Assembly (NCBI GenBank): GCA_965218975.1
Contig: OZ244717.1
Coordinates: 234,205 to 298,204 of the forward strand
Source of the DNA: Candidatus Oxydemutatoraceae bacterium
GTDB taxonomy: Bacteria > Pseudomonadota > Gammaproteobacteria > Poriferisulfidales > Oxydemutatoraceae
DNA: 64,000 bases
Reading direction: 5' to 3'
The notes beneath the pieces were generated by a model. The model saw nothing but the letters and a program-made list of their open reading frames with translations. It had not been told where the DNA came from and made no database searches. Made by a program: the position numbers and the translations under genes. Shown here piece after piece: positions 7,245-58,237 of the stretch. The number at the start of each line of letters is the position of its first letter. Position 1 is the first letter of the stretch.

Positions 7245-7990
7245 GAAACCGTTTTGTGTTTGTTGGCGGATTGTGCCGGATTGTCGGCAAAGTGCCTGTC
7301 ATCCATGCCGCGACTAGGTTCTGTCAACAAGCCCCAGCCCCGACGTCCATGTCGGGTCGTTCGCCGCTGAAAAGCAATTGCTTTTCCGGGCGCGTCTCAC
7401 CCTGACGAGACTGGGTTCTGTCAACAAGCCCCAGCCTCGACGTCCTTGTCGGGTCGTTCACCGCTGAAAACCAATTGGTTTTCCGGGCGCGTCTCATCCA
7501 TGCCGCGACTGGGTTCTGTCAACAAGCCCCAGCCCAGACGTCCATGTCGGGTCGTTCGCCGCTGAAAAGCAATTGCTTTTCCGGGCGCGTCTCACCCTGA
7601 CGAGACTGGGTTCTGTCAACAAGCCCCAGCCTCGACGTCCTTGTCGGGTCGTTCACCGCTGAAAACCAATTGGTTTTCCGGGCGCGTCTCATCCATGCCG
7701 CGACTGGGTTCTGTCAACAAGCCCCAGCCCAGACGTCCATGTCGGGTCGTTCGCCGCTGAAAAGCAATTGCTTTTCCGGGCGCGTCTCACCCTGACGAGA
7801 CTGGGTTCTGTCAACAAGCCCCAGCCCCGACGTCCTTGTCGGGTCGTTCACCGCTGAAAACCAATTGGTTTTCCGGGCGCGTCTCACCCATAACGAGACT
7901 TGGTTCTGTCAATGAGCGCCAGCCTCGACGTCCTTATCAGGCCGTTCGCCGCTGAAAACCGATCGGTTTTCCGGGCGCGTTTCATCCCTG
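7245..7990 (+). repeat. Tandem array of palindromic REP-like units: three full 195-bp periods plus a partial one. Each period is two diverged ~97-bp half-units. The array is preceded by the conserved tail GAAACCGTTTTGTGTTTGTTGGCGGATTGTGCCGGATTGTCGGCAAAGTGCCTGTC.
   Basis: ATCCATGCCG recurs at 7301, 7496 and 7691, a 195-bp period with near-perfect identity between periods. Half-units carry the hairpins GAAAAGCAATTGCTTTTC / GAAAACCAATTGGTTTTC and CCCGACGTCC.TGTCGGG, then CCGGGCGCGTCTCA. This is the same family as 2265-2625, in the opposite orientation. Confidence 0.85.
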
Positions 7991-10560: not shown

Positions 10561-10626
10561 GGTGTATCTCCTATCGTTGAAGAAATATTACCATGAATAC
10601 TTACTTGTGTCAACTATATAATCACG

Positions 10627-10830
10627 AAACCATTTTGTGTTTGCTGCCGGATTGTCGGCGGATTGTGCCGGATTGTCGGCAAAGTGCCTGTCACCCATGA
10701 CGAGACTTGGTTCTGTCAATAAACCCCAGCCTCGACGTCCTTGTCAGGTCGTTCGCCGCTGAAAAGCAATTGCTTTTCCGGGCGCGGCTCACCCTGCAAG
10801 AATCCCATTTAAGGTGGCATCGTACAAAGT
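10627..10830 (+). repeat. One REP-like palindromic unit followed directly by the IS481-family 3' inverted repeat (AATCCCATTTAAGGTGGCATCGTACA). This is the distal part of the IS481 remnant split by the IS1595 insertion.
   Basis: The sequence continues the 8243-8250 junction. It carries the tail TTGTGTTTGCTGCCGGATTGTCGGCGGATTGTGCCGGATTGTCGGCAAAGTGCCTGTC, then a unit with the GAAAAGCAATTGCTTTTC hairpin, then the inverted repeat. Confidence 0.75.
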
Positions 10831-41204: not shown

Positions 41205-41702
41205 CGAGATCAGATATGCAGTATCAACACATTGGCCACCGCATCACCTGTCTGCGTGGAACGCACAGGCAGATATGATGCCCTATTATTTTGGAAGAGT
41301 TGTAGCTCCCGAACGCATTCAAGGTCGGTCGCAGTACTTTGTACCGCTGGCGGCGGCGGACCTGGCCGCAATTGATTCAGCGTGAAATCAAACGTCTGCG
41401 CCAAGATCATTTGAATCTCGGCAGCAGTAAAATCTTTGAGCTAATGAAACCGTTTTGTGTTTGGTGGCGATGCTCGGCACAGTGTTTGTCATCCATGACG
41501 AGACTTGGTTCTGTCAACAAGCCCCAGCCCCGACGTCCTTGTCGGGTCGTTCGCCGCTGAAAACCGATCGGTTTTCCGGGCGCGTCTCACCCTGCACCGC
41601 CCTCATGCCGGCAACGGACAGAAAGCACCGATCCGAATGTTACTGCCGAACGCTTCCCTCAAAGCACTTCAAAAATCCCATTTAGGATGGCATCGTACAT
41701 GA
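41205..41702 (+). mobile_element. MITE-like deletion derivative of the IS481-family element: left-end region and transposase N-terminal HTH, one REP-like unit, the last ~35 codons of the transposase, and the 3' inverted repeat.
   Basis: ...FKVGRSTLYRWRRRTWPQLIQREIKRLRQDHLNLGSSKIFELMKPF, then GAAACCGTTTTGTGTTTGGTGGCG..., a palindromic unit, then HRPHAGNGQKAPIRMLLPNASLKALQKSHLGWHRT, then AAAAATCCCATTTAGGATGGCATCGTACAT. Confidence 0.7.
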
Positions 41703-41771
41703 ACACGTATAAAACAGTTGTAAAATGGTTAATGGTCTTTAATAGGACAATCCGTAGTTTAATGAAATAAC

Positions 41772-43196
41772 ATGAATCAATCAGCATTAAACAAACAAAT
41801 AAATAAAGAGCAGATTGATAGTTTGAAAAATGACGCAAAAGCTCTTTCAGCTTTTTTACAAGATCGGAGCGATGGCGCAATTATTTATGTACTAAAAAAG
41901 TTAGGGAGACTAAAGAATGGATATAACAAGCAGCCATTACTAAATCTTTTAAACAATAGTAACGAGACAATCAGGTCGCTTGCAATAAAAAATCTTGCAA
42001 AAATAAGTGATACTTCTTTATTAAACACTTTTATAGAATTTGCTAAACAAGATGAAAGCAGCGAAGTTAGACGGGAGTCCGTTTCCGCTATTGGGAGGTT
42101 AAGAAATGAAAAAACGATTCCGGTGCTGACTCAATTGTTGTCGGATAAAGATCCGAAAGTTGTCATGCAAGCTATAAGGGGATTACTTGTTTTTTCAAAA
42201 AAAAGCCAAGTAAGGGGAGAATTATCAAGATTGCTTGATCATCCGAATGAATTAATCAAAGAAGTTATCAGTAAAGAAATAAATGGGGCAAGCCATAGAT
42301 CGAAAGATAATGGGAAGCATGATGAGTTTCCGGTTTATCTTAAGAATACGATTGTTCACGGTAATGTTGTAGAGATATTAAAACACGTTCCTGATGAGTC
42401 TGTTCATCTCACTTTTACTTCACCACCTTATTATAATGCCAGAAATTATTCAATTTACCAAAGTTACAATGAGTATTTGCAGTTTCTAGAAGAAGTTTTT
42501 AAGGGAATTCATCGGGTTACAAAAGAAGGCAGATTTTTTATACTTAATACATCACCGATCATTATTCCAAGGATAAGCAGATCTCACGCTAGCAAAAGGT
42601 ACCCTATCCCTTATGATATTCATCCGTTATTAATAAAAATGGGATGGGAATTTATTGATGATATTGTGTGGGTAAAACCAGAAGCAAGTGTGAAAAATAG
42701 AAATGCGGGTTTTCTGCAGCACAGGAAGCCATTGGCTTATAAACCAAATGCGATTTCTGAAATGTTAATGGTTTATAGAAAAGAAACGGACAAGTTAATT
42801 GATTGGAATATGCATAAGTATGGTCGGGGTAAAGTTGAGAGGAGTAAGGTTACAGGCAAATATGAAACTACAAATGTTTGGTATATTGACCCGACTTTTG
42901 ATAGGGTCCATAGTGCAGTTTTCCCTTTAGAGTTATGTGATCGTGTTATCAAATATTATTCATTTGTTGATGATTTAATTTTTGACCCGTTTGCAGGGAG
43001 CGGAACTCTTGGCAAAGCAGCCGTTAATTTAAACCGACATTTCTTTTTAACGGAAAAAGACTCAAGATATGTCAGTTATATGAAAGAAGATTTAATTAAG
43101 GGGTATGGCTTATTTAACGGGAGAGACTCGCAACCGAACTTCGTAGATATTAATAGTTTCATAACTTTAATTAAAGAAAAATATGACAATAACTGA
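41772..43196 (+). CDS. Type II DNA methyltransferase (beta-class N4-cytosine/N6-adenine) with an N-terminal HEAT/PBS-lyase repeat domain.
   Basis: Motif IV LTFTSPPYYNARNY precedes motif I IFDPFAGSGTLGKAA. The N-terminal ~170 aa carry repeated HEAT-like units (NETIRSLAIKNLAKI, ESSEVRRESVSAIGRL, SDKDPKVVMQAIRGL). The gene is strongly AT-rich and overlaps the next ORF by 14 nt. Confidence 0.7.
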   Translation: MNQSALNKQINKEQIDSLKNDAKALSAFLQDRSDGAIIYVLKKLGRLKNGYNKQPLLNLLNNSNETIRSLAIKNLAKISDTSLLNTFIEFAKQDESSEVRRESVSAIGRLRNEKTIPVLTQLLSDKDPKVVMQAIRGLLVFSKKSQVRGELSRLLDHPNELIKEVISKEINGASHRSKDNGKHDEFPVYLKNTIVHGNVVEILKHVPDESVHLTFTSPPYYNARNYSIYQSYNEYLQFLEEVFKGIHRVTKEGRFFILNTSPIIIPRISRSHASKRYPIPYDIHPLLIKMGWEFIDDIVWVKPEASVKNRNAGFLQHRKPLAYKPNAISEMLMVYRKETDKLIDWNMHKYGRGKVERSKVTGKYETTNVWYIDPTFDRVHSAVFPLELCDRVIKYYSFVDDLIFDPFAGSGTLGKAAVNLNRHFFLTEKDSRYVSYMKEDLIKGYGLFNGRDSQPNFVDINSFITLIKEKYDNN

Positions 43197-44094
43197 ACAG
43201 ACAGTAAAAAATATAATAAGGAATCTTTTAAAAGGAAAGGATTACAGAATTGAAATTATTACTCTTATTGATACTAGATTTTTACAGTTCGCCATTTATT
43301 TTTTCAAGCTTATAGTTGACGCAAAATTAAAAAGCGAAGATATCACTGTCGATTGGTATAAAAAATCTTTTTTGAATCCGAGTTTGCCGACAAAAGAAAT
43401 CGCCATCAATTCCGGCTTAAATAAAAAGACAATTCATAACATGTTTAATTCCTCGACAAAAGAAATCGTCATTGATGCTTCAAATAAACATTATGATCTT
43501 TTACATAAATCCATTAAAGATTTAGTTGATGCTAAACACGAGATTGAATTAGTTTTAACAATTAAATTTAAAGGAATTAGCGTTGATCTTAATATCAATG
43601 AAAGCTTAATTGTAATAAATGCCTTAGCTGTGAAAAGATCAGAGTTGAGGGGTGGGTTTTGGAGCACTGCCGGGAAAAGAGTTGAAAAACCATTGATGCA
43701 GACACTTTGTAAGCTGTACAGTGTATCCGAAAGAAACTATTTTTTAAAAATAAAAGGAGAAAACACGAAAGATGACTTTGAGAGAGAAGTAGACTTTTAT
43801 TTGGTGGGCGGAAACAACCGACATAAATGCGAAGTAAAATTAATGGGACGAGGAAATCCGGAAAGTGCCGATGCCGTTATAGCAAGGGGGAGTAAGGTTT
43901 TTGTGGCCGATAAATTATCCGATACTAATAAAAAGCAGTTGGATAGTTTAAATGTTGAGTGGGTTGAATTAAGGAGTAGTGGTGGATTTGAGAAATTTGA
44001 TACGGTATTAGAAAATTTGAAAATTCCACATATAAGATCACTCAGTAACATAGATGAAAGATTAGAAGTAGCATTGAAAGAGATTTTTCATTAA
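43183..44094 (+). CDS. Candidate Type II restriction endonuclease, partner of the upstream methyltransferase.
   Basis: 303-aa ORF translationally coupled to the methyltransferase. Composition is AT-rich and foreign. No recognisable family, so the endonuclease assignment is by context only. Confidence 0.4.
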   Translation: MTITEQTVKNIIRNLLKGKDYRIEIITLIDTRFLQFAIYFFKLIVDAKLKSEDITVDWYKKSFLNPSLPTKEIAINSGLNKKTIHNMFNSSTKEIVIDASNKHYDLLHKSIKDLVDAKHEIELVLTIKFKGISVDLNINESLIVINALAVKRSELRGGFWSTAGKRVEKPLMQTLCKLYSVSERNYFLKIKGENTKDDFEREVDFYLVGGNNRHKCEVKLMGRGNPESADAVIARGSKVFVADKLSDTNKKQLDSLNVEWVELRSSGGFEKFDTVLENLKIPHIRSLSNIDERLEVALKEIFH

Positions 44095-44404
44095 AAAGAA
44101 TTTGCTGCCAAGCCAAGCAAGGTTTTGGATACTTTTAGTGCGGCCGCTAAGAAAGCTGTTCCCACTGTTGTTCGCCGTTAAGCACGAGAAAAAAATAAAA
44201 ATTTTCCAGTATTGGAGTTGAAGAATAGTGGAGAGGGAAGGGGTCGAACCCCGGACCCCGTGAAGGATCAATGGTTTTCAAGGCCATCGTTTCTTGACTT
44301 CGTAGGTTTTGGCTCATAAGCGATTGCCCATGAGTGATTGAGCCAGTGCCCTCAGGATTCTCAGGGGCACTACATTTATAGTGTTGCTTGCAACGCTCCC
44401 GTGC

Positions 44405-46420
44405 TCAGTTTCCTCCGGGGCGCGACTTGCTCGGAAGCGGGAACGGAGCTTCGTCCCATTTCAAACCTACGCTACGGTAGGTCCTGTTGACGTCCGCACT
44501 CGCGCCGGATCCGCCACCCTGTCCCGCTTGATAGACCCGGTCGAGATTCAGTAGAACGCCGCCGCTTCGCTCCAGCCCGTACACCGTGGCGCGCTTGCTC
44601 TGCGGCTGTGCGATACGCGCCAGTACCAGCTCGCGCAGGATGCGATTGGCCGCCATACGGCGCGCACCCAACACCTAGTTCCATCCGAGGTGCGAATAAA
44701 TCTGCGCGAACGCCTCGTGCACCCCAAGCGTCAGACGCGTTTCCTCACGGCATTTAGCCAGATCCGCCGATGCCTCTTGCACGGCGCTTTGCCGCGGTCA
44801 TGCAAGGCGCTGAGCCCAGTGCGGCGATAACGCTGGCGCCAGCGGTACAAAGTACTGCGACCGACCTTGAATACGTTCGGGAGTTATAACCTCCCAAAAT
44901 AATAGGGCAGTATATTTCTGTTGAAGCTTAGAATGCTCATGAGCCTCCATTATTGAAGTATACGATGCCACCCTAAATGGGATTTTTGAAGCGCTTCGAG
45001 AGAAGCGTTCGACAGTAACATTCGGGGATCGGTGTTTTCTGTCCGTTGCCGACATGAGGGCGGTGCGGGGTGAGACGCGCCCGGAAAACCAATTGGTTTT
45101 CAGCGGTGAACGACCCGACAAGGACGTCGGGGCTGGGGCTTGTTGACAGAACCCAGTCGCGTCATGGACGACAGGCACTTTACCGACAATCCGGCACAAT
45201 CCGCCGACAATCCGGCACAATCCGCCGACAATTCGCACAATCCACCACCAAACTACAAAATGGTTTCATAACCGGTCATTGAATGCTTCCGTATCGGTAA
45301 ATAGCAGGTCTTCTGCATGATCGATACAATCTTCTTGGACGGTGCGGCTGAAGCGCTTGATGTGCGCGTTCATTTTCGGACACTTGGGATAGGTCAGCCA
45401 CTGCTCAATCACGGGCGATTCCCGGATGAGCCGGGCAAACTGTCCTTGAAACTCACTACCGCCGTCCGTCAAGATATATTTTACCGGTGGCGGTAGCACC
45501 GCCAGGGTCAAGCGCAGAAATGCGGCAGCACTGCGGCTGTTACAGCAGTTGGTTGCCACTGCCGTTGCCATGCGGGTATAGACATCAATGGCCGTTAAGA
45601 CGGTGCGGCGCATCCCGTGCTGATAACGCACAATTGTATCTAGGGCGATGCAATGCTCCGGATACTGTGCTTTGAAGTCTTTCGGCTTGTGTGCCCTGCA
45701 ACGGCGCTTAAACGGTCGTTTTGTTTGTCCTTTGGCATTCGTGCGCTGCGGAACACGGCGCATTTTATCCGGCGCATCCGCGGTCAGGCGCGCAATCGTG
45801 CGGACACTCGGGCAGGGTGAGACGCGCCCGGAAAACCGATCGGTTTTCAGCGGCGAACGACCCGACAAGGACGTCGGGGCTAGGGCTTGTTGACAGAACC
45901 AAGTCTCGTCATGGGTGAGACGCGCCCGGAAAACCAATTGGTTTTCAGCGGCGAACGACCCGACAAGGACGTCGGGGCTGGGGCTTGTTGACAGAACCCA
46001 GTCGCGTCATGGACGACAGGCACTTTGCCGACAATCCGGCACAATCCGCCGACAATCCGGCAACAAGCGCAAAACGGTTTCACACTGAATCGGTTGGCTA
46101 GGTCCGTCGGCGCCTCTTGCGCGGCGCTCTGGTGCGGCCATGCAAGGCGCTGAACCCAATGCGGCGATAGCGCTAGCGCCAACAGCACTAAAGTACTGCG
46201 ACCGACCTTAAATGCGTTCGGGAGTTACAACCCTCCTAAAATAATAGGGCAGCATATTTCTGTTGAAGTTTAGAGCGCTCATGAGCCTCCATTCTTGAAG
46301 CTAAATTGGCTCATATAGAAACCTTTGATGCGGTGGCCGATGTGTTGATATTGCATATCGGTCACCTTTTTGAGTTAAGCCGTGAGTCCCATACGTATCT
46401 GGCACTATACAGTGCCAAGC
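44405..46420 (-). mobile_element. Two abutting degenerate IS481-family copies in minus orientation. The first is a full-length but disrupted copy (44960-46420: left end at 46420, transposase remnants, two REP-unit insertions at 45060-45265 and 45820-46080, 3' inverted repeat at 44960-44990). The second is a 5'-truncated copy (44405-44955) containing the transposase N-terminal HTH region.
   Basis: 3' end: ...HRPHVGNGQKTPIPECYCRTLLSKRFKNPI, then GGTGGCATCGTATAC. Left end: GGCACTGTATAGTGCCAGATACGTATGGGACTCACGG (reverse complement of 46384-46420). HTH-like translation FKVGRSTLYRWRQRY and ARRMAANRILRELVLARIAQP in 44405-44900. Confidence 0.65.
45266..45937 (-). pseudogene. IS481-family transposase integrase-core (rve) remnant, truncated by REP-unit insertions.
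   Basis: LTAIDVYTRMATAVATNCC...ILTDGGSEFQGQFARLI...VQEDCIDHAEDLLFTDTEAFNDRL is the DDE/rve core of IS481-type transposases. The N-terminus reads through repeat sequence. Confidence 0.65.
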
Positions 46421-46557: not shown

Positions 46558-47748
46558 TTATTTTTTACTTGAAGATGTACCGGATAGCTTGTTCAATGCT
46601 TTATCTATTAAGGCTATTGCCTCATCAATGTTTTGATCGGAAGTATTAAATCCAAGACTGAATCTGATTGACGACTCAGCCTCATCACTTGTCAACCCTA
46701 TGGCTTTGAGAACATGAGATGGCTCTTGAGTGCCCGAAGCGCATGCCGAACCGATTGATGCCGCAAGACGTGGTTGCAACACATTCAGGATATCATGTGC
46801 TGTAAACCCCTTGAATCCGATGTTGGCATTGCCCGGGTGTCTGTATTCGACAGGGGGGCCGCACAGCGTCATGGGCCATGACAACGCCAACAGTTTGTCG
46901 ACAAATCGGTCCCGGTGTCTGCACAATTGTTCACGCTTATTCCTTGCTTGATCAGAACATAAGTATTCTGCTGCCGCTCCCATTCCAACGCATAACGGTG
47001 TAGGCAAAGTTCCGGAACGCAGTCCGTTCTGTTGTCCGCCACCGTAGATCAGAGGTTCAATGCTTTCTTGTAAGTCACGACGGATATAGAGCGCGCCAAT
47101 TCCCTTGGGACCATATATTTTATGCCCTGAAAGACTCAACAGGTCGGTATCATTTGCAAAGTTTTGCATATCTATCGCAATAGGCGCCTGAGCGGCATCA
47201 CAATGAAAGATGGCGCCGGATTGTCTGATTAAGCCGGATAAATTCGCGATATCCTGTATGGTTCCTATCTCATTGTTTACCGCCATAATCGAGACGATCA
47301 GCACGTCATCAGTGAGGCTGCGTTCCAAGTCCGGCAGTAAGATGTGTCCGGATTCGTCAACCGGAAGCAATTCGACCTGAAAACCGAGCTGCTCGTTCAA
47401 TACGCGCCCGACGGCGAGCACACTCTTGTGCTCAATTGCGCTAAGAAGGATTTTTTTTCTTGCAGCGCCCTCTGCCGCCGCATGTTTTGCTAACCCTAGC
47501 AAAGCTAAATTGTTGGACTCGGTTGCCCCGGACGTGAACACGATTTCATCGGCATCGGCGGCGATCAAGCGGGCAACTTGCTGCGCCGCTTTTTCCACAG
47601 CGCGAAAACTTTCCCAACCAGGCGCATGATCTGCCGAATGCGGACTGGCATAGGATTCCGAGAAGTACGGACGCATTTCACGCAACACTCTGTCGGAAAC
47701 CGGCGTCGTTGCCTGATAGTCAAAATACAGATATTCTGATGCGTTCAT
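46558..47748 (-). CDS. sspA: Cysteine desulfurase (class V aminotransferase, NifS/IscS-like). Candidate SspA/DndA-type sulfur donor of the adjacent phosphorothioation module.
   Basis: PLP blocks LSLSGHKIYGPKGIGALYIR and TSGATESNNLAL. Active-site loop GSACASG. Start taken at MNASEYLYFDY (47748). Divergent from the DUF4007 gene. Confidence 0.7.
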   Translation of the reverse strand: MNASEYLYFDYQATTPVSDRVLREMRPYFSESYASPHSADHAPGWESFRAVEKAAQQVARLIAADADEIVFTSGATESNNLALLGLAKHAAAEGAARKKILLSAIEHKSVLAVGRVLNEQLGFQVELLPVDESGHILLPDLERSLTDDVLIVSIMAVNNEIGTIQDIANLSGLIRQSGAIFHCDAAQAPIAIDMQNFANDTDLLSLSGHKIYGPKGIGALYIRRDLQESIEPLIYGGGQQNGLRSGTLPTPLCVGMGAAAEYLCSDQARNKREQLCRHRDRFVDKLLALSWPMTLCGPPVEYRHPGNANIGFKGFTAHDILNVLQPRLAASIGSACASGTQEPSHVLKAIGLTSDEAESSIRFSLGFNTSDQNIDEAIALIDKALNKLSGTSSSKK

Positions 47749-47849
47749 CGGTAAGTCTTCAATCTTGAAATATCCTATAATACCAGAGACAGTCTTCAGG
47801 AATATAACCTTGAGACTATAATACATGTTCCGATAACAGGACGACGAAT

Positions 47850-48824
47850 ATGACACGACGCGGCCCCCTATGTAGACAGGATTACAAACCGCACTTTTTA
47901 GGACACGAAACATTTCCCCTGCGCTATGGGTGGCTGAAAAAAGTCTATGACCGTGTGTCCCGCACCGAGAGAAATAAAAACAACAAAGCCCTGTGTTGGG
48001 GTGATAACGCTATTGCCTTGTTTGGTGTCGGTAAAAATATGGTTGCGTCAATGCGCCATTGGTCAATTGCGGCGGGAATAATTGAAGAGCCTTTAGGCGC
48101 AAATAAGGTGATTACAACCAAGATTGGCCGACAACTGTTCGGCAACGGCGGCCTTGATCCTTACTTGGAGCACCAAACATCTCTATGGCTAATCCATTGG
48201 AAGCTGGCAACGGAGTGGAAAAAAAAGACCACTTGGTTTTGGGCTTTCAATCACTACTACGCCGTACAGTTTGAGCAGGATAAGTTTGTCAAAAGACTTG
48301 AGCGCCTGGCAAAACATCTCGGGTGGCCACATGCCGCACATAGGACCATCAAAAATGACGTTGTCTGTTTTATTCGAACCTATACGACTCATCCCCTTGC
48401 CTCAAAAACGGGATGCGATGATTTACTCGGGTCGCCCCTAGCAGAGCTAGGCCTCATAAAGCCGTTCTCTCGAAAGGGTGAGTTCAGATTTGTTCACGGC
48501 CCGAAATCAACCTTGGGCAAAGGCGCTTTTGTTTATGCTCTTCTTGAGTTTTGGTCAAATTTTTCTCCCGCTACTTCAACACTTTCGTTTGAGGCGATTA
48601 CCTACGAGCCCGGGTCGCCGGGACGCGCTTTTCTGCTTGATGAGAACGACGCGGCCGAGAGATTATCTGACATTGACGATATTACCGGCGGTGCGCTGCG
48701 GTGGTCGGAGACGGCAGGATTGAAGCAGGTCGTGCGGAACCCCGGCTTTGCGATAGATTCTGATTATGCTCTTCGGCTCATAAAAAATGATTATGACGAT
48801 TCTGCTTGCATGAAGGCAGCGTAG
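47850..48824 (+). CDS. sspB: DUF4007-like protein; candidate SspB of a single-strand DNA phosphorothioation system.
   Basis: N-terminal GHETFPLRYGWLKKVYD and the overall 324-aa size match my recollection of the DUF4007 family that defines SspB. It is first gene of an overlapping three-gene operon with a large P-loop ATPase and a PAPS-reductase-like protein. An HMM search is needed to confirm. Confidence 0.55.
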   Translation: MTRRGPLCRQDYKPHFLGHETFPLRYGWLKKVYDRVSRTERNKNNKALCWGDNAIALFGVGKNMVASMRHWSIAAGIIEEPLGANKVITTKIGRQLFGNGGLDPYLEHQTSLWLIHWKLATEWKKKTTWFWAFNHYYAVQFEQDKFVKRLERLAKHLGWPHAAHRTIKNDVVCFIRTYTTHPLASKTGCDDLLGSPLAELGLIKPFSRKGEFRFVHGPKSTLGKGAFVYALLEFWSNFSPATSTLSFEAITYEPGSPGRAFLLDENDAAERLSDIDDITGGALRWSETAGLKQVVRNPGFAIDSDYALRLIKNDYDDSACMKAA

Positions 48825-51800
48825 TGGCACTAATTGATCAAATTCATATCGCGCGGCGTTTCCAAAAATCAATCCGCATTGATGCCGATTTCGGCGAACG
48901 CGATGCGCTGCACGGATTTATATGCCCTCGGTCATCGGGGAATACTCTGCTATCCATGGCCCGGCACGTGTCGGAGACCAACCAAGGCGCTTTTACTTGG
49001 ACCGGTCCGTACGGCAGCGGAAAATCTAGTCTTATCGTTGCTTTAAGCGCATTGCTCGGCGGTAATCCGCATTTGCGAGAACAAGCCGCCGCGATTTTTG
49101 GCCGAACGCTTACTAATGCGATACGAGGAATGCTTCCGGCAGGGATGAAGGGTTGGCGGGTAGTGCCGGTGATAGGGAGGCGAGATGACCCTGTTGATGT
49201 TATCGGACGCACCTTAGAGACAACGGGGCTTGTCGCTCGCCGGCCTCGCGGCGGCTGGACCGAAGATCTTCTTATTACCAATTTGATGGAAGGCGCGACA
49301 AACAAGGTTTACGGCGGGTTGATCTTATTCGTTGACGAGATGGGAAAATTCCTTGAGGCGGCCGCACAAGACGAGGTGGATATTTATATTTTCCAGCAAC
49401 TTGCCGAAACCGCCTCGCGAAGCAACGGGCGACTCCTCGTCATTGGTATATTGCACCAGGCGTTTGAAGAATATGCGCACCGCTTGTCTTACGAAATGCG
49501 CGATGAGTGGGCCAAGATACAAGGACGCTTCATTGATCTTCCGGTTAACACGACCGGCGAAGAACAAATTGACCTTATTTCCCGCGCAATCGGAAACAAC
49601 CGCCGTGCCGGTAAACCGAGCGCGCCATCTGTAACCGTGGCACAGTCGGTATATCGCGGTCGCACCGGCGATGCTCGGCAATTAGCCCGGATGCTGGAAA
49701 ATTGCCGGCCGTTGCATCCTGTTGTCGCGTGTTTGCTCGGGCCGATATCGCGCCGGCGCTTTGGCCAAAACCAACGCAGTATATTTGGCTTTCTCAATTC
49801 AGCCGAACCTCACGGTTTTCAGGATTATCTGCGCACCGCAAACGGAAACAGTCGCTACGGGCCCGAAAAGCTTTGGGATTATTTGCAGACAAATCTCGAG
49901 CCGTCCATTCTCGCCTCGCCGGACAGTCATCGATGGGCATTTGCGGCGGAAGCCATAGAGCGCTGTGAGTCTGTCGGGGGAGATATCTTCCATGTCAATT
50001 TATTAAAAACGATCGCGGTTATCGATCTTTTTAAGGAACGATCGGGACTCGTAGCCGGTTTCGATCTGCTTAAATCATGTTTTCCCGGTATCACGGCAAA
50101 ATCTTTAAAGCAAGGTCTAAAACGGCTGGACGATTGGTCGTTGACCGTATTCAAAAAATTTCAGGATGCATACGCCGTATTTGCCGGCAGCGACTTTGAT
50201 ATTGACCGGGCTGTCGGCAAGGCATTGGAGGAAATTGACGAAATTGATTTTGCCGCACTGAAATCGTTGGCGGGGCTTCAGCCGATTCTTGCCAAGCGCC
50301 ACTATTACGAAACCGGAGCAATGCGCTGGTTTGACGTAGATATCACTTCGGCGTGTGATGTTGCGGAATCCGTAGCTCGGTTCGAAACGAAAAACGATGT
50401 GATCGGTCAGTTCCTGTCGGTAATCCCGACAAAAGGAGAAGATGAAGATACGGTTAAAAAATTGTGCCGCGACGCAGCAAAGTCGCACGGTCAATGGGGC
50501 ATCATCGTCGGGTTTTCCGAGTACTCCCGGGCTGTTGTTGCCCTCGCGCGCGAGCTGCTGGCGACGGATAAAGTAAATAACGAATCTCCCGAGTTGGCGG
50601 GCGATACCGTTGCGCGCCGCGAAGTGTCCGCCCGTCTTGCTGAGTTGCAAGCCCTGCTTGAGCGCGAGCTGAATAAGTCTTTTGACCGAGCCGAATGGTA
50701 TCGCAAACATTGCGTTCCCAAGCCGTATCGCCGAGCCGATTTGAATAATCTGGTTTCTAAGCTTGCCGATAAGCGCTTTGATCAGTGCCCCAAGATTCGT
50801 AACGAACTTTTAAATAGACAAAAACCTTCCGGCAGCGCCGCCGGCGCGCGGAATGCCTTGTTACGTTGTATGGTCCGGAACGAGGGCAAGCCTCGCCTCG
50901 GAATAGAGGGCTACCCTGCTGAAGGCGGTTTGTTCGCATCTATACTCGAGACGACAGGCCTGTATTCCGAAGCGCGTGCAGGAAAATGGCATTTTACGGC
51001 ACCACCCCAAGGCAAGACTGACAAGTGCAGGATATTTCCTATGTGGAATGCGGCTGTCCGACACATCAAAAAAAATAATCAGCGTCCCGTGCCGGTATCG
51101 GAACTCTACGACAAGATTTGGTCTCAACCGCCCTACGGGGTCAAGGCGGGATTGGTGCCCGTTTTATCCGTTGCATTTATATTGTCGCAGCGTAACAACG
51201 TAGCGGTATATCGCGAGAGTATTTTTCGTGCCCGTTTTGACGATATTGACATGGAATATATGGTCAAGAACGCTGCGGCCATACAGTTGCGCTGGATGAG
51301 GCTCAACAGTACGTCGCGCCGCTTATTGTCCGATATGACCGAGGTCGTGCGCGACTTGAACAAGAACAACAAACTGCTTCATCCGGAGCCGATTGACGTG
51401 GCGCGCGGTTTGGTTGCAATTTACGAACGATTGCCTCAGTGGGCTAAGCGCACGATGAGGCTCTCGGCAAACGCGATCAGAGTGCGCGATATTTTTAAGC
51501 ACGCATACGACCCTAATAAATTCTTGTTTGACGATATTCCTACATTGTCGGAAGGGAAGAGGACGGGCCCTTCAGGCGCAAAAGCTATTCGGAAAATTGT
51601 TTCCTTGGTAAATGAAGGCTTGCAAGAGCTTGTGCAGGCCTATCCTTTGATGCTCCGTCGTATGCGCGACGTTATGTTGGCAGAATTGCAGGTTCCGAAC
51701 GCATCAAGGCAATCTCTTGCGGAATTAAGAGACCGAGCTACCAATATAAAAGAGTTGGCGGGTGATTTCCGTCTGGATGCTTTTATCGGGAGAATCGCCC

Positions 51801-52225
51801 GATACGACGGCAGCGACGCCGGATTTGAGGGGATTGCCAGTCTTGCAGCGAATAAACCGCCTCGCGACTGGGTTGATCCGGATTTGAACCGCGCCGCAAT
51901 AGAGATTGCGGACATGGCGCAGAAGTTTTTAAGAGCCGAAACTTTTACCCGTATCCGCGGACGGCCTGAGAAACGCCAGGCCATGGCTGTCTTTATCGGC
52001 GTGAAGGGGCGACCCGTGCCTTTGCTGGAAGAGTTTGATGTCATTGACTCCGACCGAGCGGCAATTGATGATCTTATTGAGCATGTCTCTGCCGTGCTTG
52101 AGACGGTTGATACAAATAGCCGGAGTATCGTATTGGCCGCATTGGCCGAACTTGGCGCCCGGTATATGCAAAAGCCGGACCAAGCCAAGCGAAAAAGGAA
52201 GAACGGAAAACCTACCGATGCCTGA
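48806..52225 (+). CDS. sspC: Large P-loop NTPase (1139 aa); candidate SspC.
   Basis: Walker A WTGPYGSGKSSLIVAL. Walker B LILFVDEMGKFLE. The start overlaps the DUF4007 gene and the end overlaps the PP-loop gene. No transmembrane segments. Confidence 0.55.
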   Translation: MHEGSVVALIDQIHIARRFQKSIRIDADFGERDALHGFICPRSSGNTLLSMARHVSETNQGAFTWTGPYGSGKSSLIVALSALLGGNPHLREQAAAIFGRTLTNAIRGMLPAGMKGWRVVPVIGRRDDPVDVIGRTLETTGLVARRPRGGWTEDLLITNLMEGATNKVYGGLILFVDEMGKFLEAAAQDEVDIYIFQQLAETASRSNGRLLVIGILHQAFEEYAHRLSYEMRDEWAKIQGRFIDLPVNTTGEEQIDLISRAIGNNRRAGKPSAPSVTVAQSVYRGRTGDARQLARMLENCRPLHPVVACLLGPISRRRFGQNQRSIFGFLNSAEPHGFQDYLRTANGNSRYGPEKLWDYLQTNLEPSILASPDSHRWAFAAEAIERCESVGGDIFHVNLLKTIAVIDLFKERSGLVAGFDLLKSCFPGITAKSLKQGLKRLDDWSLTVFKKFQDAYAVFAGSDFDIDRAVGKALEEIDEIDFAALKSLAGLQPILAKRHYYETGAMRWFDVDITSACDVAESVARFETKNDVIGQFLSVIPTKGEDEDTVKKLCRDAAKSHGQWGIIVGFSEYSRAVVALARELLATDKVNNESPELAGDTVARREVSARLAELQALLERELNKSFDRAEWYRKHCVPKPYRRADLNNLVSKLADKRFDQCPKIRNELLNRQKPSGSAAGARNALLRCMVRNEGKPRLGIEGYPAEGGLFASILETTGLYSEARAGKWHFTAPPQGKTDKCRIFPMWNAAVRHIKKNNQRPVPVSELYDKIWSQPPYGVKAGLVPVLSVAFILSQRNNVAVYRESIFRARFDDIDMEYMVKNAAAIQLRWMRLNSTSRRLLSDMTEVVRDLNKNNKLLHPEPIDVARGLVAIYERLPQWAKRTMRLSANAIRVRDIFKHAYDPNKFLFDDIPTLSEGKRTGPSGAKAIRKIVSLVNEGLQELVQAYPLMLRRMRDVMLAELQVPNASRQSLAELRDRATNIKELAGDFRLDAFIGRIARYDGSDAGFEGIASLAANKPPRDWVDPDLNRAAIEIADMAQKFLRAETFTRIRGRPEKRQAMAVFIGVKGRPVPLLEEFDVIDSDRAAIDDLIEHVSAVLETVDTNSRSIVLAALAELGARYMQKPDQAKRKRKNGKPTDA

Positions 52226-53048
52226 AAAGCATGTTTTAGGATTATCCGGCGGCAGAGACAGCGCTGCGTTGGCTGTTTACATGCGGCAACATTATCCCGA
52301 GCTTGAGTTGGAATATTTCTTTACCGATACCGGCAAAGAATTACCCGAAGTTTATGAGTATCTAGGACGGTTGGAAGGGTTTCTCGGGCAGCCGATTTTG
52401 CGCCTTAATCCGGATCGCGATTTTGACTTCTGGTTAAAGCAATATGACGGTTTCCTTCCTTCTCCTCAAACGAGATGGTGCACGAGACAATTAAAACTTC
52501 GTCCGTTTGAAGACTGGATTCGACCGATGCTTGAAAACGGAACAAAAGTGTATAGTTACGTCGCTATTCGCGGGGATGAGGCGTATAGAAAAGGGTATTC
52601 TCCTAAATACGAGAATTTGAAAATCAAATTGCCTTTTAAGGAGGCAGGTATAGACAAAGCCGGGGTGCTTGAAATTCTTGACGGTGCCGGGCTCGGCTTG
52701 CCCGAATATTACTCATGGCGGACTAGGAGCGGGTGCACGTTTTGTTTCTTTCAGCAGAAAATTGAGTGGGTGCGGCTGAAGGAGCGGCACCCGGACGCAT
52801 TTGAAGAAGCCAAGGCATACGAGAAAGACGCCGTTAACCACGGTTCCCCTTTCACCTGGAGTCAAGGTGAGTCCTTAGAAGAGCTGTCACAGCCGGAGCG
52901 TATTGACCAGATCAAAGAAGAACATGCGCGACGTCTTCTGCGCTTGAGGGGTAAAGTGCAGAATAATCCTTTGCGTTCCGATAGCGAGCCCTTGGATATT
53001 GACGATTTATACGGCAAGGCAAAAGTTTGCTTGGCATGCCATAAGTAG
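52218..53048 (+). CDS. sspD: PAPS-reductase / PP-loop ATP pyrophosphatase family protein; candidate SspD (DndC-like).
   Basis: PP-loop motif VLGLSGGRDSAALAV immediately after the start at MPEKHV (52218, 8-nt overlap with the previous gene). C-terminal CxxC motif CLACHK. Confidence 0.65.
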   Translation: MPEKHVLGLSGGRDSAALAVYMRQHYPELELEYFFTDTGKELPEVYEYLGRLEGFLGQPILRLNPDRDFDFWLKQYDGFLPSPQTRWCTRQLKLRPFEDWIRPMLENGTKVYSYVAIRGDEAYRKGYSPKYENLKIKLPFKEAGIDKAGVLEILDGAGLGLPEYYSWRTRSGCTFCFFQQKIEWVRLKERHPDAFEEAKAYEKDAVNHGSPFTWSQGESLEELSQPERIDQIKEEHARRLLRLRGKVQNNPLRSDSEPLDIDDLYGKAKVCLACHK

Positions 53049-53668: not shown

Positions 53669-55810
53669 CTATGACGCCACGCCTGGTTCGACTCGCGGGT
53701 CTGGGCGGCGCCGGCAGAGCTGGCATTCGTCCTTGTGATCGCATTCGCAGCGGAGGACCCTGCGTTCTTCAATGCCGGGATCGTTCACGAGCATTTTCGG
53801 GTAGTGTGCGGAGTTCGTCAGGGTAAATACCACTCCGGCGGACTGATCGATAATTTCCTCGCAGCCCGTAATTTCATCGTGTGTCAGGAACAGAATCAGT
53901 TGCGCGCTTTCACGTACGGATGTGTGCAGGACCGAGCGCTTCACAAAGCCACTCGTCATGCCGAGCGGTGTGTCAATCACGTTCGGCGCTTCAACCTCGC
54001 TCACTTTCGTTAGGGCGAGGATGAATGCGAGCGTCAGCGCGCGGCGAGATGCGCCGTTTAGGTCGCGGTCGGGGTTGAGTGTCCTGTCATTCGGGCCGTA
54101 GGCGATGATGTCAAATTCCCGGCTGATCTCAGCGCGCTGGATAATCGCGCCCTGTTTCGGGTCCGCGCCGATCATTTCCAGGAATATGTTGTTCATTAAA
54201 TCGCTGACCTTCCGCAATTCCTTGTTGGTGATTCGCTCATACGCGCTTTGCAGCACCTTCCTGACGTCTTGCGTGACTTCAAGTTCGGCCCGAACCCGCG
54301 CTCCACTTTTCTGTTTGCGCAAGAGGCGGTCGCGCTCGGTTTCTAACTTTATGCGATCGCGGTGCAGCTCGGTGAGCTGGGTTTTGATGGCCGACTGTTC
54401 CGACAGGTAGTGGTCACGCCGGTCATTGAACTGGCGGCGCGCTTTGCGCAGACCCTGGATATCCGTGTTGGGAAGCGAGTCGAGTTGCAATTCCAGCGCA
54501 CGCAACTTCCGACCTTCTTCGTTGCGCAGGGTTCCGAGATCGTCGCGCCGCTCGGCGACTTTCTTGTAGTCCTCAAGCCATCCACTTGACCCGGCGTCAC
54601 CGCTGGTCTGTAAGGGCTTCGCGTAGTACAACAGTTCGGCGACGACCTCCTGGATTTCTTCGGGATGCCGGCTGTCGTTGATCAGCTTCTGAATACGTGC
54701 GCGGCGCTTGTCGCCGCCGGGACCGTCGGGTTCCAACGTTTCGCCGCAGATGCAGATTTCCGCTGAGAGACATCCCTCAAGCACCGGGATCGTTATGTAC
54801 GGGATCTTGCCCTGCTCGCGCAGCTCTTCGAGTTTGTCGAATGCCTGACCGAGCATCGGCGCAAGCAGGTCGGTTGCAACGGACCGGCTGCGAAACAGTG
54901 CTGAGTGTTCCTCGTTCGCCACCTTGACCCGTCTGTCGAGCTGACGGATCATGTTCTTCGCATATTCGAGGTCCTTGCGCAGCTTTTCCTTGTCACCTTT
55001 CTGGAGGGCCGCGTCAATCTCGCGGTCTCTCTTATTGACGTATTCATCGAACGTCCTGAACTGTTGTTTGGCGTCCGCAAGAGCGTCTTCGGATTTCTTG
55101 CAGTCGTTCTCTAGCGTTTCGAGGCGCGAGGCGGTCTTGTTCAGCTCACTGCCGGACCCGAGTTGCTTTGCTTGCTTATTCACTTCCGCCGCCGATTTGC
55201 CCACATGCTTGATCGCGTCGTTGATTACTTCGAGTCCCAGAAGAGAACATATCGCCTGTTCCACGCGGTCGCGTTTGGTGGATAGGATAACATCCGCTTC
55301 GATGAAGCTTAGCGCGCGGTCACCATCTGTGAAAAAGACCTCCCTTAGCTGCGGTGGCAGGTTTTCGTTGATGAACGCTTCTGGGGTGCTCATGGGACTT
55401 GCGCCGGTATCGTTCAGCTGAAGCAGGTCCACGGTCGAGGCGGAACGACGGGCCTGGCTGTCTATATCCTCGAACGCCGAGCGTACGAGGCGATAGTGCC
55501 GGCGGGTTTCGCGCCATTCCTCGCCGACTCGTCGGTGGGTCGTCAGCTCGAATTCAACCACGGCCATGATCGGGACCCGCTTCCCATCGCTCGCGACCCA
55601 GTCAATGGGATGCAGCCGAAATCCCTCGCCCTTGTCGGGCAGCGCCCCGTCGCCGTAAAGTGCCCATTGAAGGCCGTGCAGGATCGTGGTTTTCCCGGAT
55701 TCGTTCGCGGCGCGGATAACGGTTAGTTTTTTGTCGGGGTCGGTGGAGAATTCCAGCTCCAGATCGCGGAGCAGCCGGAAGTTCTTAAATTCGGCGCGGA
55801 GCAGCTTCAT
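53669..55810 (-). CDS. SMC/RecF/DndD-like AAA ATPase with a long central coiled-coil and Cys clusters.
   Basis: N-terminal Walker A IRAANESGKTTILHGLQWALYG. C-terminal signature/D-loop region RRALTLAFILAL...LILFLTHDE. About 400 aa of heptad-rich sequence between them. Central CLSAEICICGETLEPDGPGG and C-terminal CECDHKDECQLC Cys clusters. Start taken at MKLLRAEF (55810), which overlaps the upstream small-ORF stop as ATGA. Confidence 0.65.
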   Translation of the reverse strand: MKLLRAEFKNFRLLRDLELEFSTDPDKKLTVIRAANESGKTTILHGLQWALYGDGALPDKGEGFRLHPIDWVASDGKRVPIMAVVEFELTTHRRVGEEWRETRRHYRLVRSAFEDIDSQARRSASTVDLLQLNDTGASPMSTPEAFINENLPPQLREVFFTDGDRALSFIEADVILSTKRDRVEQAICSLLGLEVINDAIKHVGKSAAEVNKQAKQLGSGSELNKTASRLETLENDCKKSEDALADAKQQFRTFDEYVNKRDREIDAALQKGDKEKLRKDLEYAKNMIRQLDRRVKVANEEHSALFRSRSVATDLLAPMLGQAFDKLEELREQGKIPYITIPVLEGCLSAEICICGETLEPDGPGGDKRRARIQKLINDSRHPEEIQEVVAELLYYAKPLQTSGDAGSSGWLEDYKKVAERRDDLGTLRNEEGRKLRALELQLDSLPNTDIQGLRKARRQFNDRRDHYLSEQSAIKTQLTELHRDRIKLETERDRLLRKQKSGARVRAELEVTQDVRKVLQSAYERITNKELRKVSDLMNNIFLEMIGADPKQGAIIQRAEISREFDIIAYGPNDRTLNPDRDLNGASRRALTLAFILALTKVSEVEAPNVIDTPLGMTSGFVKRSVLHTSVRESAQLILFLTHDEITGCEEIIDQSAGVVFTLTNSAHYPKMLVNDPGIEERRVLRCECDHKDECQLCRRRPDPRVEPGVAS

Positions 55811-56051
55811 GAGTCCGGTTTCTCTGTTCCCGCGTCTTGACCGCGTTGAGACGCGAGGAACCGTGCAGCGGCATTGCACTTGTTGTTTATCTTCTGTTGT
55901 ATGTTTGTCGCTGAGATGCGATGCTCTCGTTCATATTCCCGAATATCGTTAATCACTTTGAAGATCTCTTTCCTATAGCCCTCACACCGTTCCTCTATCC
56001 CGGTGCACTCCTCAAGGATGATCGAGATTATCTTTTTGTCGTTTAGCGGCA
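55807..56051 (-). CDS. Small hypothetical protein (81 aa), translationally coupled between the helicase and the SMC-like gene.
   Basis: Strong RBS GGAGAGGGAGGacaaATG on the minus strand. The TGA stop overlaps the ATG of the next gene. The protein is charged and helical, with no family. Confidence 0.5.
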
Positions 56052-56068: not shown

Positions 56069-58237
56069 TTACAAGTACGCGGCGTCAACCATTCTGTCAA
56101 TCGTCGCCAGCGGCCCGTCCGTCCGGCCCGCGTTTTTCGCTAGCCGGGCAAACTCCTGCGCCCGATGCAATTCTGAACGTACAAGGCTACGTGCATCAGG
56201 GTCAAGCTCCTCTTCCATCTTCGGCGGCAAAGCTAGTAAATCGTGAATAATGCTGTGCGTTTTGCCAATATTACTACAAGTGCGTAAAAGGCGTCCGCGC
56301 CGTTGCACCCATTGCCGTTCGACCGTCGTGCTCGCGAGAATGAACGCCTTGCATATCTGCGGGATATTCACTCCTTCGTCGAGCACGCGCTTTGCCGTCA
56401 GCATCTGAATTTCCCCGTCCTGGAAGGACTTGATGATCCGCTTAGTCTGCTCGCGGTTCGCCGTCTCTTCGGCGGTGAGCTGGTGGAATAAGATATTCCG
56501 GTCGCGCAGCAACCGATTCACGTCGTCGAGCTGATCCGGTCCCTTGTCGGAGGTGTAAACGAGCGTGTGCCGCAGGTTGCCGGTATCCTCTTTATCAAGC
56601 AGAGTCCTCAGCATCGAAACCTTGCCGGAGGCGGTTTCCAGCAACGCGCGCCGATCCCGCAAAAGCTTGGCGAGGTACTCGTCCGGCTTATCTCCGTCGC
56701 TGCGCCAAGCATTCCGCTTGATTTTGCCCGTCAGCTCGAACCAGTCGTCCATTTCGGTGTCTGTCAGGGACACGGGATGGACGTAGTAATCGTATTCGAC
56801 AAGACAGCGGCCGATGGCCTCTTCTAGTGCGAAACGGAAAACAATGGGTCCGAAGAATCCGAATAGCGCTTTTGTCCCTTCCTCGTCATACTGACGTATC
56901 GGTGTGGCCGAGAGACCGAGACGATGTTCAAAGAATTCCGGCGGATTCCTGACAAACGAGGCGCGGCCTAGATTGTGAGCTTCATCAGCAATGAGTAGGC
57001 GGTCGCAATCAAACTTCTCAACTGCGACGAGAAATTCTGGAGTGCACAACGTATCGTGACTGACGACGATGACTTCAACATCCGACAGATTGGTACGCAG
57101 TCGCCGTTTCAGTTTTTGCAGCTCGCGCGCACGCTTCGCCGCACCGCCAGCTGTCGTGAGATTGACCGGCTTTATCCCGAACGGAACGATTTCATTGCAC
57201 CACTGTTCAATCAATGGTACATAGGGCGCGGCGACGACGATGAATAGCGGTCTGCGCTCTTCGTAGAGACGGTGTGCGCTGATCATTGAAGTGATTGTCT
57301 TCCCTGAGCCGGTCGCCATTTCCAGAATGCCTCGATACCGGGTCTCGCACCATGCATTGACTGCCTTTCCCTCGTGTTTGAATGGCCCGTCTTCGTATCG
57401 AAGCCAGCTTGGTATTACGAATTCCGTCTTCGGGACCGGAACGGGCTCGTACAATGCGGGCTCTTCCGCAATGCCGGTTGCGCGCACGTAGAGAGCACGC
57501 AGATCATCTTCGGTCGGAGGCGATTCGGAGCCGTAGGTGCGCAAGAGACGCTGTCTGATGGCATCTGGCATCGCGATAACGATACAGTTGTCGTCCTTGT
57601 TTTCCCACAGTCGGCGGAACTCGTAATGAAGCTTATCGGTGATGTAATGTTGATTCGAGTCCTGCCATGACCTTGATATGGTGGTCTGTTCGATGTTCTT
57701 CCGAATGCCTGCAAAGGTTACGTTGCTCGAACCGTGCGCCGCGACGACATCGCTACCGTTCTCGAAGAGCCAAACCTTGGGATGAAAGAGAGCATCTTTC
57801 ATCAGGGCGGTCCTGATTTCGATTCGGTGCTTCCGAACCAGCCACGTAAGGCATTTTAGCGTGTAGCGTTGTAGTAGGTCTTCGGTGACGATCAGCTCTT
57901 CTAGAATCTTGTCGGCGACCTCTTCGGCTGACTTCAACCCGTCCTCAATTGCGGCTTTATCCTCGGCACGGAGCAGGGGACTCACAACAAGCCGGAAACT
58001 ATTTTGCGACCCTGCGATGTAGGTCGCTAGACCCGGGGCAAGCGAAGCTAGTACTTCGCTTGAAAAGAAACCGGTCATGCAATCTACGCTATCCGCTGCC
58101 CGGAATCCCGGAATCAACACTTCCTCGGCAAATGGGTCTGCCGGCAGCATGTAAAGCGGACGGGCCGACCCCAGCGACCGAAGCGTTTGTGTCACCACAG
58201 TCGCAGTTTTGTCCTGTATTGCCGTATCATGCACCAC
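56069..58237 (-). CDS. Fusion of a PLD-family (HKD) nuclease domain and an SF2 DEAD/DEAH-box helicase; a restriction-type effector.
   Basis: HKD motif FHPKVWLFENGSDVVAAHGSSNVT at about aa 150. Helicase motif I LEMATGSGKTITS, motif II LLIADEAHNLG, motif III SATPIRQ, motif VI QWVQRRGRLLR. 722 aa. Confidence 0.7.
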   Translation of the reverse strand: MVHDTAIQDKTATVVTQTLRSLGSARPLYMLPADPFAEEVLIPGFRAADSVDCMTGFFSSEVLASLAPGLATYIAGSQNSFRLVVSPLLRAEDKAAIEDGLKSAEEVADKILEELIVTEDLLQRYTLKCLTWLVRKHRIEIRTALMKDALFHPKVWLFENGSDVVAAHGSSNVTFAGIRKNIEQTTISRSWQDSNQHYITDKLHYEFRRLWENKDDNCIVIAMPDAIRQRLLRTYGSESPPTEDDLRALYVRATGIAEEPALYEPVPVPKTEFVIPSWLRYEDGPFKHEGKAVNAWCETRYRGILEMATGSGKTITSMISAHRLYEERRPLFIVVAAPYVPLIEQWCNEIVPFGIKPVNLTTAGGAAKRARELQKLKRRLRTNLSDVEVIVVSHDTLCTPEFLVAVEKFDCDRLLIADEAHNLGRASFVRNPPEFFEHRLGLSATPIRQYDEEGTKALFGFFGPIVFRFALEEAIGRCLVEYDYYVHPVSLTDTEMDDWFELTGKIKRNAWRSDGDKPDEYLAKLLRDRRALLETASGKVSMLRTLLDKEDTGNLRHTLVYTSDKGPDQLDDVNRLLRDRNILFHQLTAEETANREQTKRIIKSFQDGEIQMLTAKRVLDEGVNIPQICKAFILASTTVERQWVQRRGRLLRTCSNIGKTHSIIHDLLALPPKMEEELDPDARSLVRSELHRAQEFARLAKNAGRTDGPLATIDRMVDAAYL

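Follow-up and report, generated by a model that had tools for sequence, protein, structure and literature searches.

The 64,000-nt stretch of contig OZ244717.1 (positions 234,205 to 298,204) from a Candidatus Oxydemutatoraceae bacterium, here called the window, carries two open reading frames (ORFs) on the plus strand, at 41772–43196 (474 aa) and 43183–44094 (303 aa), which share 14 nt. The first encodes a DNA methyltransferase (MTase) with an N-terminal helical-repeat domain, and the second encodes a restriction endonuclease (REase) of the CfrBI family. The locus very probably represents an intact Type II restriction-modification (R-M) operon of a widespread family, with the MTase gene (M) and the REase gene (R) arranged in tandem. 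An initial annotation, made from the sequence, had reported both ORFs at these positions as translationally coupled, and had proposed that they form a Type II R-M cassette gained by horizontal transfer. This proposal is supported by the protein families, the operon structure, the GC content, and the identity across phyla. The features of the locus and its surroundings are listed in Table 1.

The methyltransferase and its partner nuclease

The MTase matches the Pfam family N6_N4_Mtase (PF01555) over aa 211–438 (E 2.7e-37; 129 bits at a gathering cutoff of 26.7). The SPPY motif (S217–Y220) precedes the FAGSG motif (407–411), the latter within a DPFAGSGT sequence. This order is that of the beta class, and both motifs are invariant among 34 homologs. 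The earlier description as an SPPY-type beta-class methyltransferase agrees with the Pfam score and the motif. The CcrM structure 6pbd is among the PDB matches of the protein. The 474-aa enzyme is predicted to act as a beta-class S-adenosylmethionine-dependent DNA methyltransferase with the motif order IV, target recognition domain (TRD), I. Its catalytic half is poorly resolved in the model, owing to a shallow alignment.

The N-terminal third of the MTase consists of HEAT-like repeats. It scores 63.3 bits with Pfam HEAT_2 (cutoff 27.7) and 44.3 bits with HEAT (cutoff 23.5), matches PDB chains of designed HEAT-like alphaRep proteins with E-values down to 1e-26, and displays a 31-residue register. 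In the AlphaFold2 (AF2) model, residues 10–170 form eleven helices with a predicted local distance difference test (pLDDT) score of 83–95. Foldseek aligns this model with alphaRep proteins (target template modelling score 0.71–0.85; root-mean-square deviation 2.4–3.8 Å) and also with the phycocyanin lyase CpcE/CpcF. The claim of about 170 HEAT/PBS-lyase-like residues at the N-terminus is thus borne out by sequence profiles and by a confidently predicted solenoid. The mean identity to relatives is 76% for the HEAT domain and 78–84% for the catalytic segments. The domain is basic (pI 9.66), and its residues that are invariant among the 34 homologs include K73, K77, R100, R101, R109, K129, and R136. 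It may serve as a conserved basic accessory module that helps to hold DNA or a partner protein.

Accessory domains on a Type II or orphan MTase core are also found elsewhere. M.SsoII and M.EcoRII have an N-terminal helix-turn-helix (HTH) autoregulatory region, and CcrM has a C-terminal DNA-binding domain. These enzymes offer possible analogies for DNA binding or autoregulation (PMC3978073 for M.SsoII). The accessory domain in the window, known here from sequence and a model, is a HEAT-like alpha-solenoid and not an HTH as in M.SsoII and M.EcoRII. If it binds DNA or the REase, it would represent a novel type of accessory or regulatory module in R-M systems.

The REase matches Pfam RE_CfrBI (PF09516) over aa 7–247 (model positions 3–254 of 257; 82 bits, cutoff 25) and the PADLOC REase_II model PDLC03496 from end to end (E 1e-104). 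Its homologs, more than 4500 database clusters, all belong to PF09516, and NCBI gives several of them the name 'CfrBI family restriction endonuclease'. The initial annotation had seen a candidate endonuclease in the 303-aa ORF, which stands, but had found no recognisable family for it, which does not. The family is one of restriction endonucleases and not of some non-nuclease protein. The enzyme would cleave the unmethylated form of the site of the MTase. Candidate catalytic residues are D204 and E217-x-K219; among 32 homologs, E217 and K219 do not vary and D204 hardly does. The three residues are located on successive strands of a predicted alpha-beta-beta-beta-alpha-beta unit, an order that would fit the PD-(D/E)XK pattern.

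Table 1. Coordinates of the R-M genes and of neighbouring features in the window.
Feature	Position	Strand	Remarks
Methyltransferase gene	41772–43196	+	474 aa; HEAT-like solenoid, then beta-class N4/N6 MTase core
HEAT-like solenoid of the MTase	aa ~10–170, nt ~41799–42281	+	Profile matches and AF2 model
MTase core	aa 189–445, nt 42336–43106	+	SPPY aa 217–220, FAGSG aa 407–411
CfrBI-family Type II restriction endonuclease gene	43183–44094	+	303 aa; start codon within the MTase ORF (14-nt overlap)
Remnant of the 3' end of a controller-like HTH gene (last codons and stop)	41755–41770	+	16-nt exact match TAGTTTAATGAAATAA
Internally deleted IS481-like derivative (MITE-like)	41213–41699	+	Both element ends and one copy of a genome-wide ~98-nt repeat
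Decayed tRNA-Ser(UGA)-like 3' fragment	44230–44293	-	Pairwise alignment with genuine tRNA-Ser(UGA) genes
Partial 5' region of a second IS481-like copy	44754–44958	-	Direct repeats D2, D4, D5 match 46094–46300, 81–91%
Degenerate IS481-like copy, ~1.4 kb	44961–46359	-	Transposase remnant ORF 45266–45937; frame broken by stops and inserted 98-nt repeats
SspA	46558–47913	-	
SspB/DUF4007	47850–48824		
SspC	48806–52225		
SspD	52035–53048		
PbeC/DndD-like gene	53669–55879	-	
PbeA-like gene	56069–58237	-	

Distribution and foreign origin of the operon

The fusion of HEAT repeats to a Type II methyltransferase had been called unusual. This view has to be abandoned, since the MTase, like the REase, has more than 4500 homologous database clusters, and the best 120, to which the identity figures refer, all carry HEAT repeats together with PF01555 (72–82% identity, about 471 aa). 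A portion of the HEAT region is included in the PADLOC MTase model PDLC03276, and the fusion is therefore already catalogued. A literature search for HEAT-fused DNA MTases returned no relevant paper. In a library of representatives at 50% identity, further clusters keep the HEAT and MTase parts at 37–56% identity with a varying number of repeats, and other clusters lack an N-terminal extension or carry one of another kind. The cassette is one more member of a large, already annotated clade, and it is ordinary except for the helical-repeat domain on its methylase.

A genome scan with one genome per species yielded 80 loci (L001–L080). They span Patescibacteria (candidate phyla radiation, CPR), DPANN and other archaea, Gamma-, Delta-, and Alphaproteobacteria, Bacteroidota, Spirochaetes, Planctomycetota, Actinomycetota, and others. 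In 75 of the 80 loci, the REase gene comes directly after the MTase gene in the same orientation, and the remaining five mostly run off the contig. The M/R junction overlaps in 57 of 65 scored loci, by a 4-nt ATGA in 50 and by 14 nt in four, the latter being the overlap of the window. Translational coupling is therefore a trait of the family. The overlapping stop and start codons would make REase translation dependent on prior translation of the MTase and thereby bias expression toward protection.

The window shares its architecture, gene order, and overlapping junction with the HEAT-MTase/CfrBI-REase clade of CPR, DPANN, and other organisms. The proteins of the clade measure 471 and 304 aa, compared with 474 and 303 aa in the window, at a protein identity of 72–82% and a DNA identity of 79.5%. 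NCBI names them 'HEAT repeat domain-containing protein' or 'DNA methyltransferase' and 'CfrBI family restriction endonuclease', and the PADLOC models PDLC03276 and PDLC03496 cover the clade. The window copy differs from it in several respects. It is the most divergent of the sampled copies at conserved columns, has a 14-nt instead of a 4-nt overlap, is without the controller gene that 15 relatives carry, and resides between insertion sequence (IS) remnants on a gammaproteobacterial chromosome of about 48% GC. Ultra-small CPR and DPANN organisms and ordinary Proteobacteria thus share one highly conserved, circulating R-M operon, which bears on the flow of defence genes across distant lineages.

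The foreign origin of the cassette is evident from its composition and its relatives. The GC content is 0.30–0.36 across about 41750–44000, compared with 0.47–0.52 upstream and 0.55–0.60 in the IS-rich stretch downstream, a marked drop that had been noticed before. DNA identity to CPR-bacterial loci (79.5%) is confined to window positions 41747–44111, that is, to the two genes with about 25 nt before and 17 nt after them. The cassette proteins are 80–82% identical to proteins from other phyla. For the ArgD of the host, a poorly sampled gammaproteobacterium, in contrast, no relative exceeds 74%, and the named matches are Gammaproteobacteria at 55–60% (Chromatiaceae, Alkalilimnicola, and similar). 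The host PhoR is also of the proteobacterial type. Because of the GC drop and the high identity across phyla, as opposed to the distant relatives of ArgD, the cassette is foreign; it was acquired horizontally from a low-GC donor pool. A metagenome scan with the flanking aldolase for an empty site in a sister genome gave a best identity of 61% and no usable relative.

In viral contigs, the same MTase core is in most cases (76 of 80 loci) an orphan without HEAT repeats. One viral locus (L085) holds a full HEAT-MTase and REase pair at 54% and 68% identity, and another (L086) a HEAT-MTase alone. Among the viral loci L085–L164, many orphan MTases with a CfrBI-like core are 44–64% identical to aa ~190–445 and have neither HEAT repeats nor an REase. 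In L091 and L092, a core-only MTase is paired with a CfrBI-like REase. Viral contigs were considered as the vehicle of the cassette and rejected, as no clade member above 70% identity was found in them and the pair in L085 reaches only 54%/68%. The occurrence of the HEAT form beside an REase in cells, and of HEAT-less orphans in viruses, is compatible with a restriction-linked role of the domain. Such a role, be it DNA clamping, docking of the REase, or regulation, is speculation and is confounded by phylogeny.

Recognition site, mobility, and functional state

CfrBI, from the Citrobacter freundii plasmid pZE8, recognises CCWWGG and is associated with N4-methylcytosine (m4C) and with divergent promoters controlled by methylation (PMC6556831; bioRxiv 10.64898/2025.12.04.692298). 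M.CfrBI has been reported as an m4C enzyme, and plasmids bearing m4C of the CfrBI type are reported to be difficult to transform (PMC6556831). For the comparison, CfrBI was represented by the homologous system on the E. coli O26:H11 plasmid pO26_3 (NC_013363.1). The CfrBI-type and window systems combine the same two families, a PF01555 SPPY MTase and a PF09516 REase, and the pO26_3 system, like the window copy, has no controller (C) protein. Over its core and TRD, the window MTase shares 51% identity (68% similarity) with the 376-aa MTase found on small enterobacterial plasmids such as pO26_3, without gaps in the TRD. The two REases are 26% identical over 238 aa and share the GK..EK, RE.D, G.GN, and D243 motifs. 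The CfrBI-type MTase has an unrelated N-terminus of 110 aa in place of the HEAT repeats, and the CfrBI-type REase is about 50 aa longer than that of the window. A reading of this N-terminus as a cryptic HEAT domain was rejected, as the two do not align in a profile comparison. CfrBI-type enzymes are thus a natural HEAT-less comparator for this family.

The genes of pO26_3 are divergent, and the sole CCWWGG site of the plasmid lies in the 76-bp intergenic region between the MTase gene and that of the 355-aa 'CfrBI family' REase. This regulatory design, in which divergent genes share a promoter bearing a single recognition site, is not that of the window, where the genes are tandem and overlapping and no such site is found upstream.

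The SPPY motif and the 51% identity to the CfrBI-type MTase suggest that the MTase of the window is N4-cytosine-specific. It would most likely produce m4C in a short palindrome that is CCWWGG or close to it. CCWWGG is a plausible specificity whose chances are about even. It is kept, with m4C, as a lead because the REase is only 26% identical and the N-termini of the MTases are unrelated.

The observations that weigh against an intact, working operon of CfrBI type concern the fold of the nuclease, the recognition site, and the control region. The structure model of the REase has a pLDDT of only 57, which is explained by a shallow alignment of low diversity. Foldseek (none at E < 0.08) and sequence and profile searches against the PDB returned no significant nuclease match for it, and the PD-(D/E)XK fold therefore stays a prediction. 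Moreover, its ExK motif reads D-I-G in the CfrBI-type enzyme of pO26_3.

For the recognition site, CCWWGG is not clearly avoided in the window, with 36 sites observed and 44.5 ± 6.2 expected. Over the 763 kb of the pooled loci L001–L080, its observed/expected ratio (O/E) is 0.81, a value taken without a control set, and other palindromes are more depleted. CCWWGG occurs within 200 nt upstream of M in four of 53 loci, the window not among them, and is not a conserved site there. A search across the loci found no other conserved operator upstream of M. In the same pooled set, again without a control set, GGCC is the most depleted 4-mer palindrome (O/E 0.51), and GGWWCC has an O/E of 0.63.

The system may then recognise a site other than CCWWGG, with a link to CfrBI at the family level and a specificity of the clade's own. 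The probability of this alternative lies only a little below one half. Besides the missing avoidance and promoter site, it can draw on the low identity of the REase, for which tblastn found no match in plasmid (E <= 1e-3) and phage collections, so that its link to CfrBI exists at the profile level only. In the pairwise alignment with the pO26_3 MTase, aa ~307–365 are also visibly less conserved than the remaining core. Set against this are the membership of both partners in the same two families as CfrBI and the 51% identity over the whole MTase core with a gap-free TRD. An identity of about 51% in the core falls in the range often seen for iso-specific MTases.

The route by which the operon reached the window is a separate question, in which tRNA genes may play a part. 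Within 2.5 kb upstream of the MTase gene and on the same strand, 27 tRNA genes, 15 of them tRNA-Ser, occur in 19 of the 80 loci, compared with 6, 5, and 1 in the other three configurations for an equal amount of sequence. In total, tRNA-Ser accounts for 24 of the 55 tRNAs near the cassette (binomial P 8e-10 against 11%). In some loci, the 3' end of the tRNA borders directly on the MTase gene or on a C gene that is truncated, the latter in L042 and L062. Loci with a tRNA gene just upstream come from unrelated phyla, for example L011 (5886–5971), L053 (5876–5963), L042 (5057–5132), L062 (5874–5949), and L006 (5223–5309). The window itself contains a single-copy tRNA-Ser(UGA)-like fragment 135 nt past the REase stop. 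It extends from the anticodon arm to the 3' strand of the acceptor, with a 2-nt deletion in the T-loop and no 5' part.

The cassette may accordingly have arrived in a tRNA-targeted integrative island, at a hotspot of the tRNA-Ser type, after which IS elements and 98-nt repeats eroded the C gene and the 5' part of the tRNA. This scenario is tentative and less likely than not. It fits the excess of same-strand upstream tRNAs, the enrichment of tRNA-Ser, the abutting tRNA ends in L042 and L062, the fragment beyond R, and the neighbouring genes, which form a defence island. No integrase, however, recurs beside the cassette across the relatives' loci. The fragment in the window is found beyond R and in the opposite orientation, the arrangement seen least often among relatives. 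It was not called as a tRNA by ARAGORN or Rfam and has no partner repeat in the window. The distribution across relatives suggests that the cassette travels in tRNA-targeted islands; in the window, the arrangement is atypical and the trace weak.

A broader reading joins this mobility to the HEAT domain. The solenoid would be a dedicated partner module that docks the REase or clamps DNA so that modification outpaces cleavage in a new cell, and the C-M-R unit would be a minimal mobile module that lands at the 3' ends of tRNA genes, mainly tRNA-Ser, without an integrase of its own. This combination is improbable as it stands. If true, the role of the solenoid as a partner module would help to explain how the operon has spread at 60–82% protein identity across CPR, DPANN, Proteobacteria, Bacteroidota, and others. 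Hints toward the broader reading are the contrast between HEAT-less viral orphans and REase-linked HEAT forms, and the strong asymmetry of the tRNA positions.

The operon may also be silent or decaying. In 15 relatives, a gene for an XRE-type HTH protein of 68–76 aa ends 2–6 nt before the MTase start; it probably encodes a C protein. Copies are located in L001 (1234–1449), L002, L003, L006, L008, L015, L024–L026, L031, L036, L044, L066, and L069. In the relatives, the region before this gene has hexamers resembling promoters in common, along with repeats or palindromes such as ATACTAnTACTATCATACT or AATTTAATGTTATTAAATT, a pattern expected of a C protein. Still further upstream, the XRE-bearing relatives have additional conserved motifs, TTTCGCTTTGCGAAATGCGCCGCCAA or GGCCAAAAGCGGGC. 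Unlike these 15 relatives, the window has neither the C gene nor its promoter region. A hidden Markov model search for a C protein in the window was not significant, and only a 16-nt match remains, which occupies the same position in L001, L002, L003, and L006 as the end of the XRE-type ORF. The sequence beyond this tail has been replaced by the IS-derived element ending at about 41699. A scan for consensus promoters and terminators upstream of the cassette gave results no better than shuffled sequences, and the Shine-Dalgarno (SD)-like AAGGAA before R in relatives reads AAAGAAAAAT in the window. Of the columns with at least 95% conservation in the sampled relatives, the window also deviates at 15 of 263 in M and at 12 of 175 in R. 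The relatives themselves average 1.6 and 1.5, a comparison that is biased because they were chosen as matches to the window.

These losses, the weaker SD-like sequence, the surplus substitutions, and the degraded IS copies all around would fit a cassette from which the C gene and native promoter were cut away and whose genes are unexpressed or drifting, perhaps with residual methylase activity. Such decay is unlikely. Both ORFs are full length, the catalytic motif residues are intact, and the changes at conserved columns are mostly conservative. An REase without a working MTase would be counter-selected fast, yet both frames are open. The C-less state is also the majority state: among 73 informative relatives, 15 have the full upstream gene, nine have fragments, and 49 have none. 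The C-less form is therefore viable. Judged from sequence, an R-M operon that is active in its host is moderately probable.

The weakest alternative concerns the IS elements. The initial annotation had placed the cassette between an IS481-derived miniature inverted-repeat transposable element (MITE) and two IS481 copies and had taken this as consistent with IS-mediated acquisition. IS-related sequences do lie on both sides, and the left one is roughly as described; its alignments to other copies in the window stop at 41697–41699. Its terminus at 41213–41246 (34 nt) is 94% complementary to 46326–46359, and 41273–41358 and 41469–41697 match the right-hand IS in inverted orientation. The two copies on the right proved to be one degenerate copy and one 5' fragment, next to the stretch at 44405–44753. 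The transposase remnant at 45266–45937 scores 75 bits with the NCBIfam IS481 transposase model (cutoff 224), 36 bits with IS3, and 24 bits with Pfam rve, the last also below its cutoff. The flanks share termini, and they combine a below-cutoff transposase and a broken frame with no target duplication; they are degraded derivatives and not functional members of IS481. The stretch at 44405–44753, between the tRNA-like fragment and the IS copies, is GC-rich (about 0.6) and contains an 89-aa minus-strand ORF (44405–44674). This ORF has no Pfam match; by eye, its 'RILRELVLARIAQPQSKRATV' segment resembles transposase N-termini.

That the cassette is the cargo of an IS481-based composite transposon bracketed by the inverted elements at 41213–41699 and 44754–46359 is very unlikely: the flanks are related and inverted, share a 34-nt terminus at their outermost ends, and include a transposase remnant most like IS481, but no direct repeat is found at 41213 and 46359 (...gagatca / ggtcacc), no transposase is intact, IS flanks do not recur in related loci, and the same IS and repeat debris recurs at no fewer than six further sites of the window, which makes chance flanking likely. 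In addition, the DNA homology to donor-like loci ends at the two genes, and the recurrent neighbour in relatives is a tRNA gene. Delivery by an IS, as first proposed, is therefore possible but unsupported.

A repeat unit of about 98 nt, which contains internal palindromes (e.g., GGAAAACCAATTGGTTTTC), occurs singly or in tandem, with up to seven copies, and is also found inside the IS481-like transposase gene. Its sites in the window are 2263–2565, 7312–7990, 10626–10826, 41469–41595, 45065–45217, and 45815–46062.

Neighbouring genes

A complete SspABCD phosphorothioation module follows immediately downstream of the cassette, from 46558 onward. Together with the PbeC/DndD-like and PbeA-like neighbours, it places the cassette in a defence island. 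The locus itself adds little, being another horizontally acquired Type II R-M system in such an island.

Elsewhere in the window, a 93-nt tandem duplication (6278–6462; two copies, 97% identical) lies inside a 520-aa ORF at 5416–6978.

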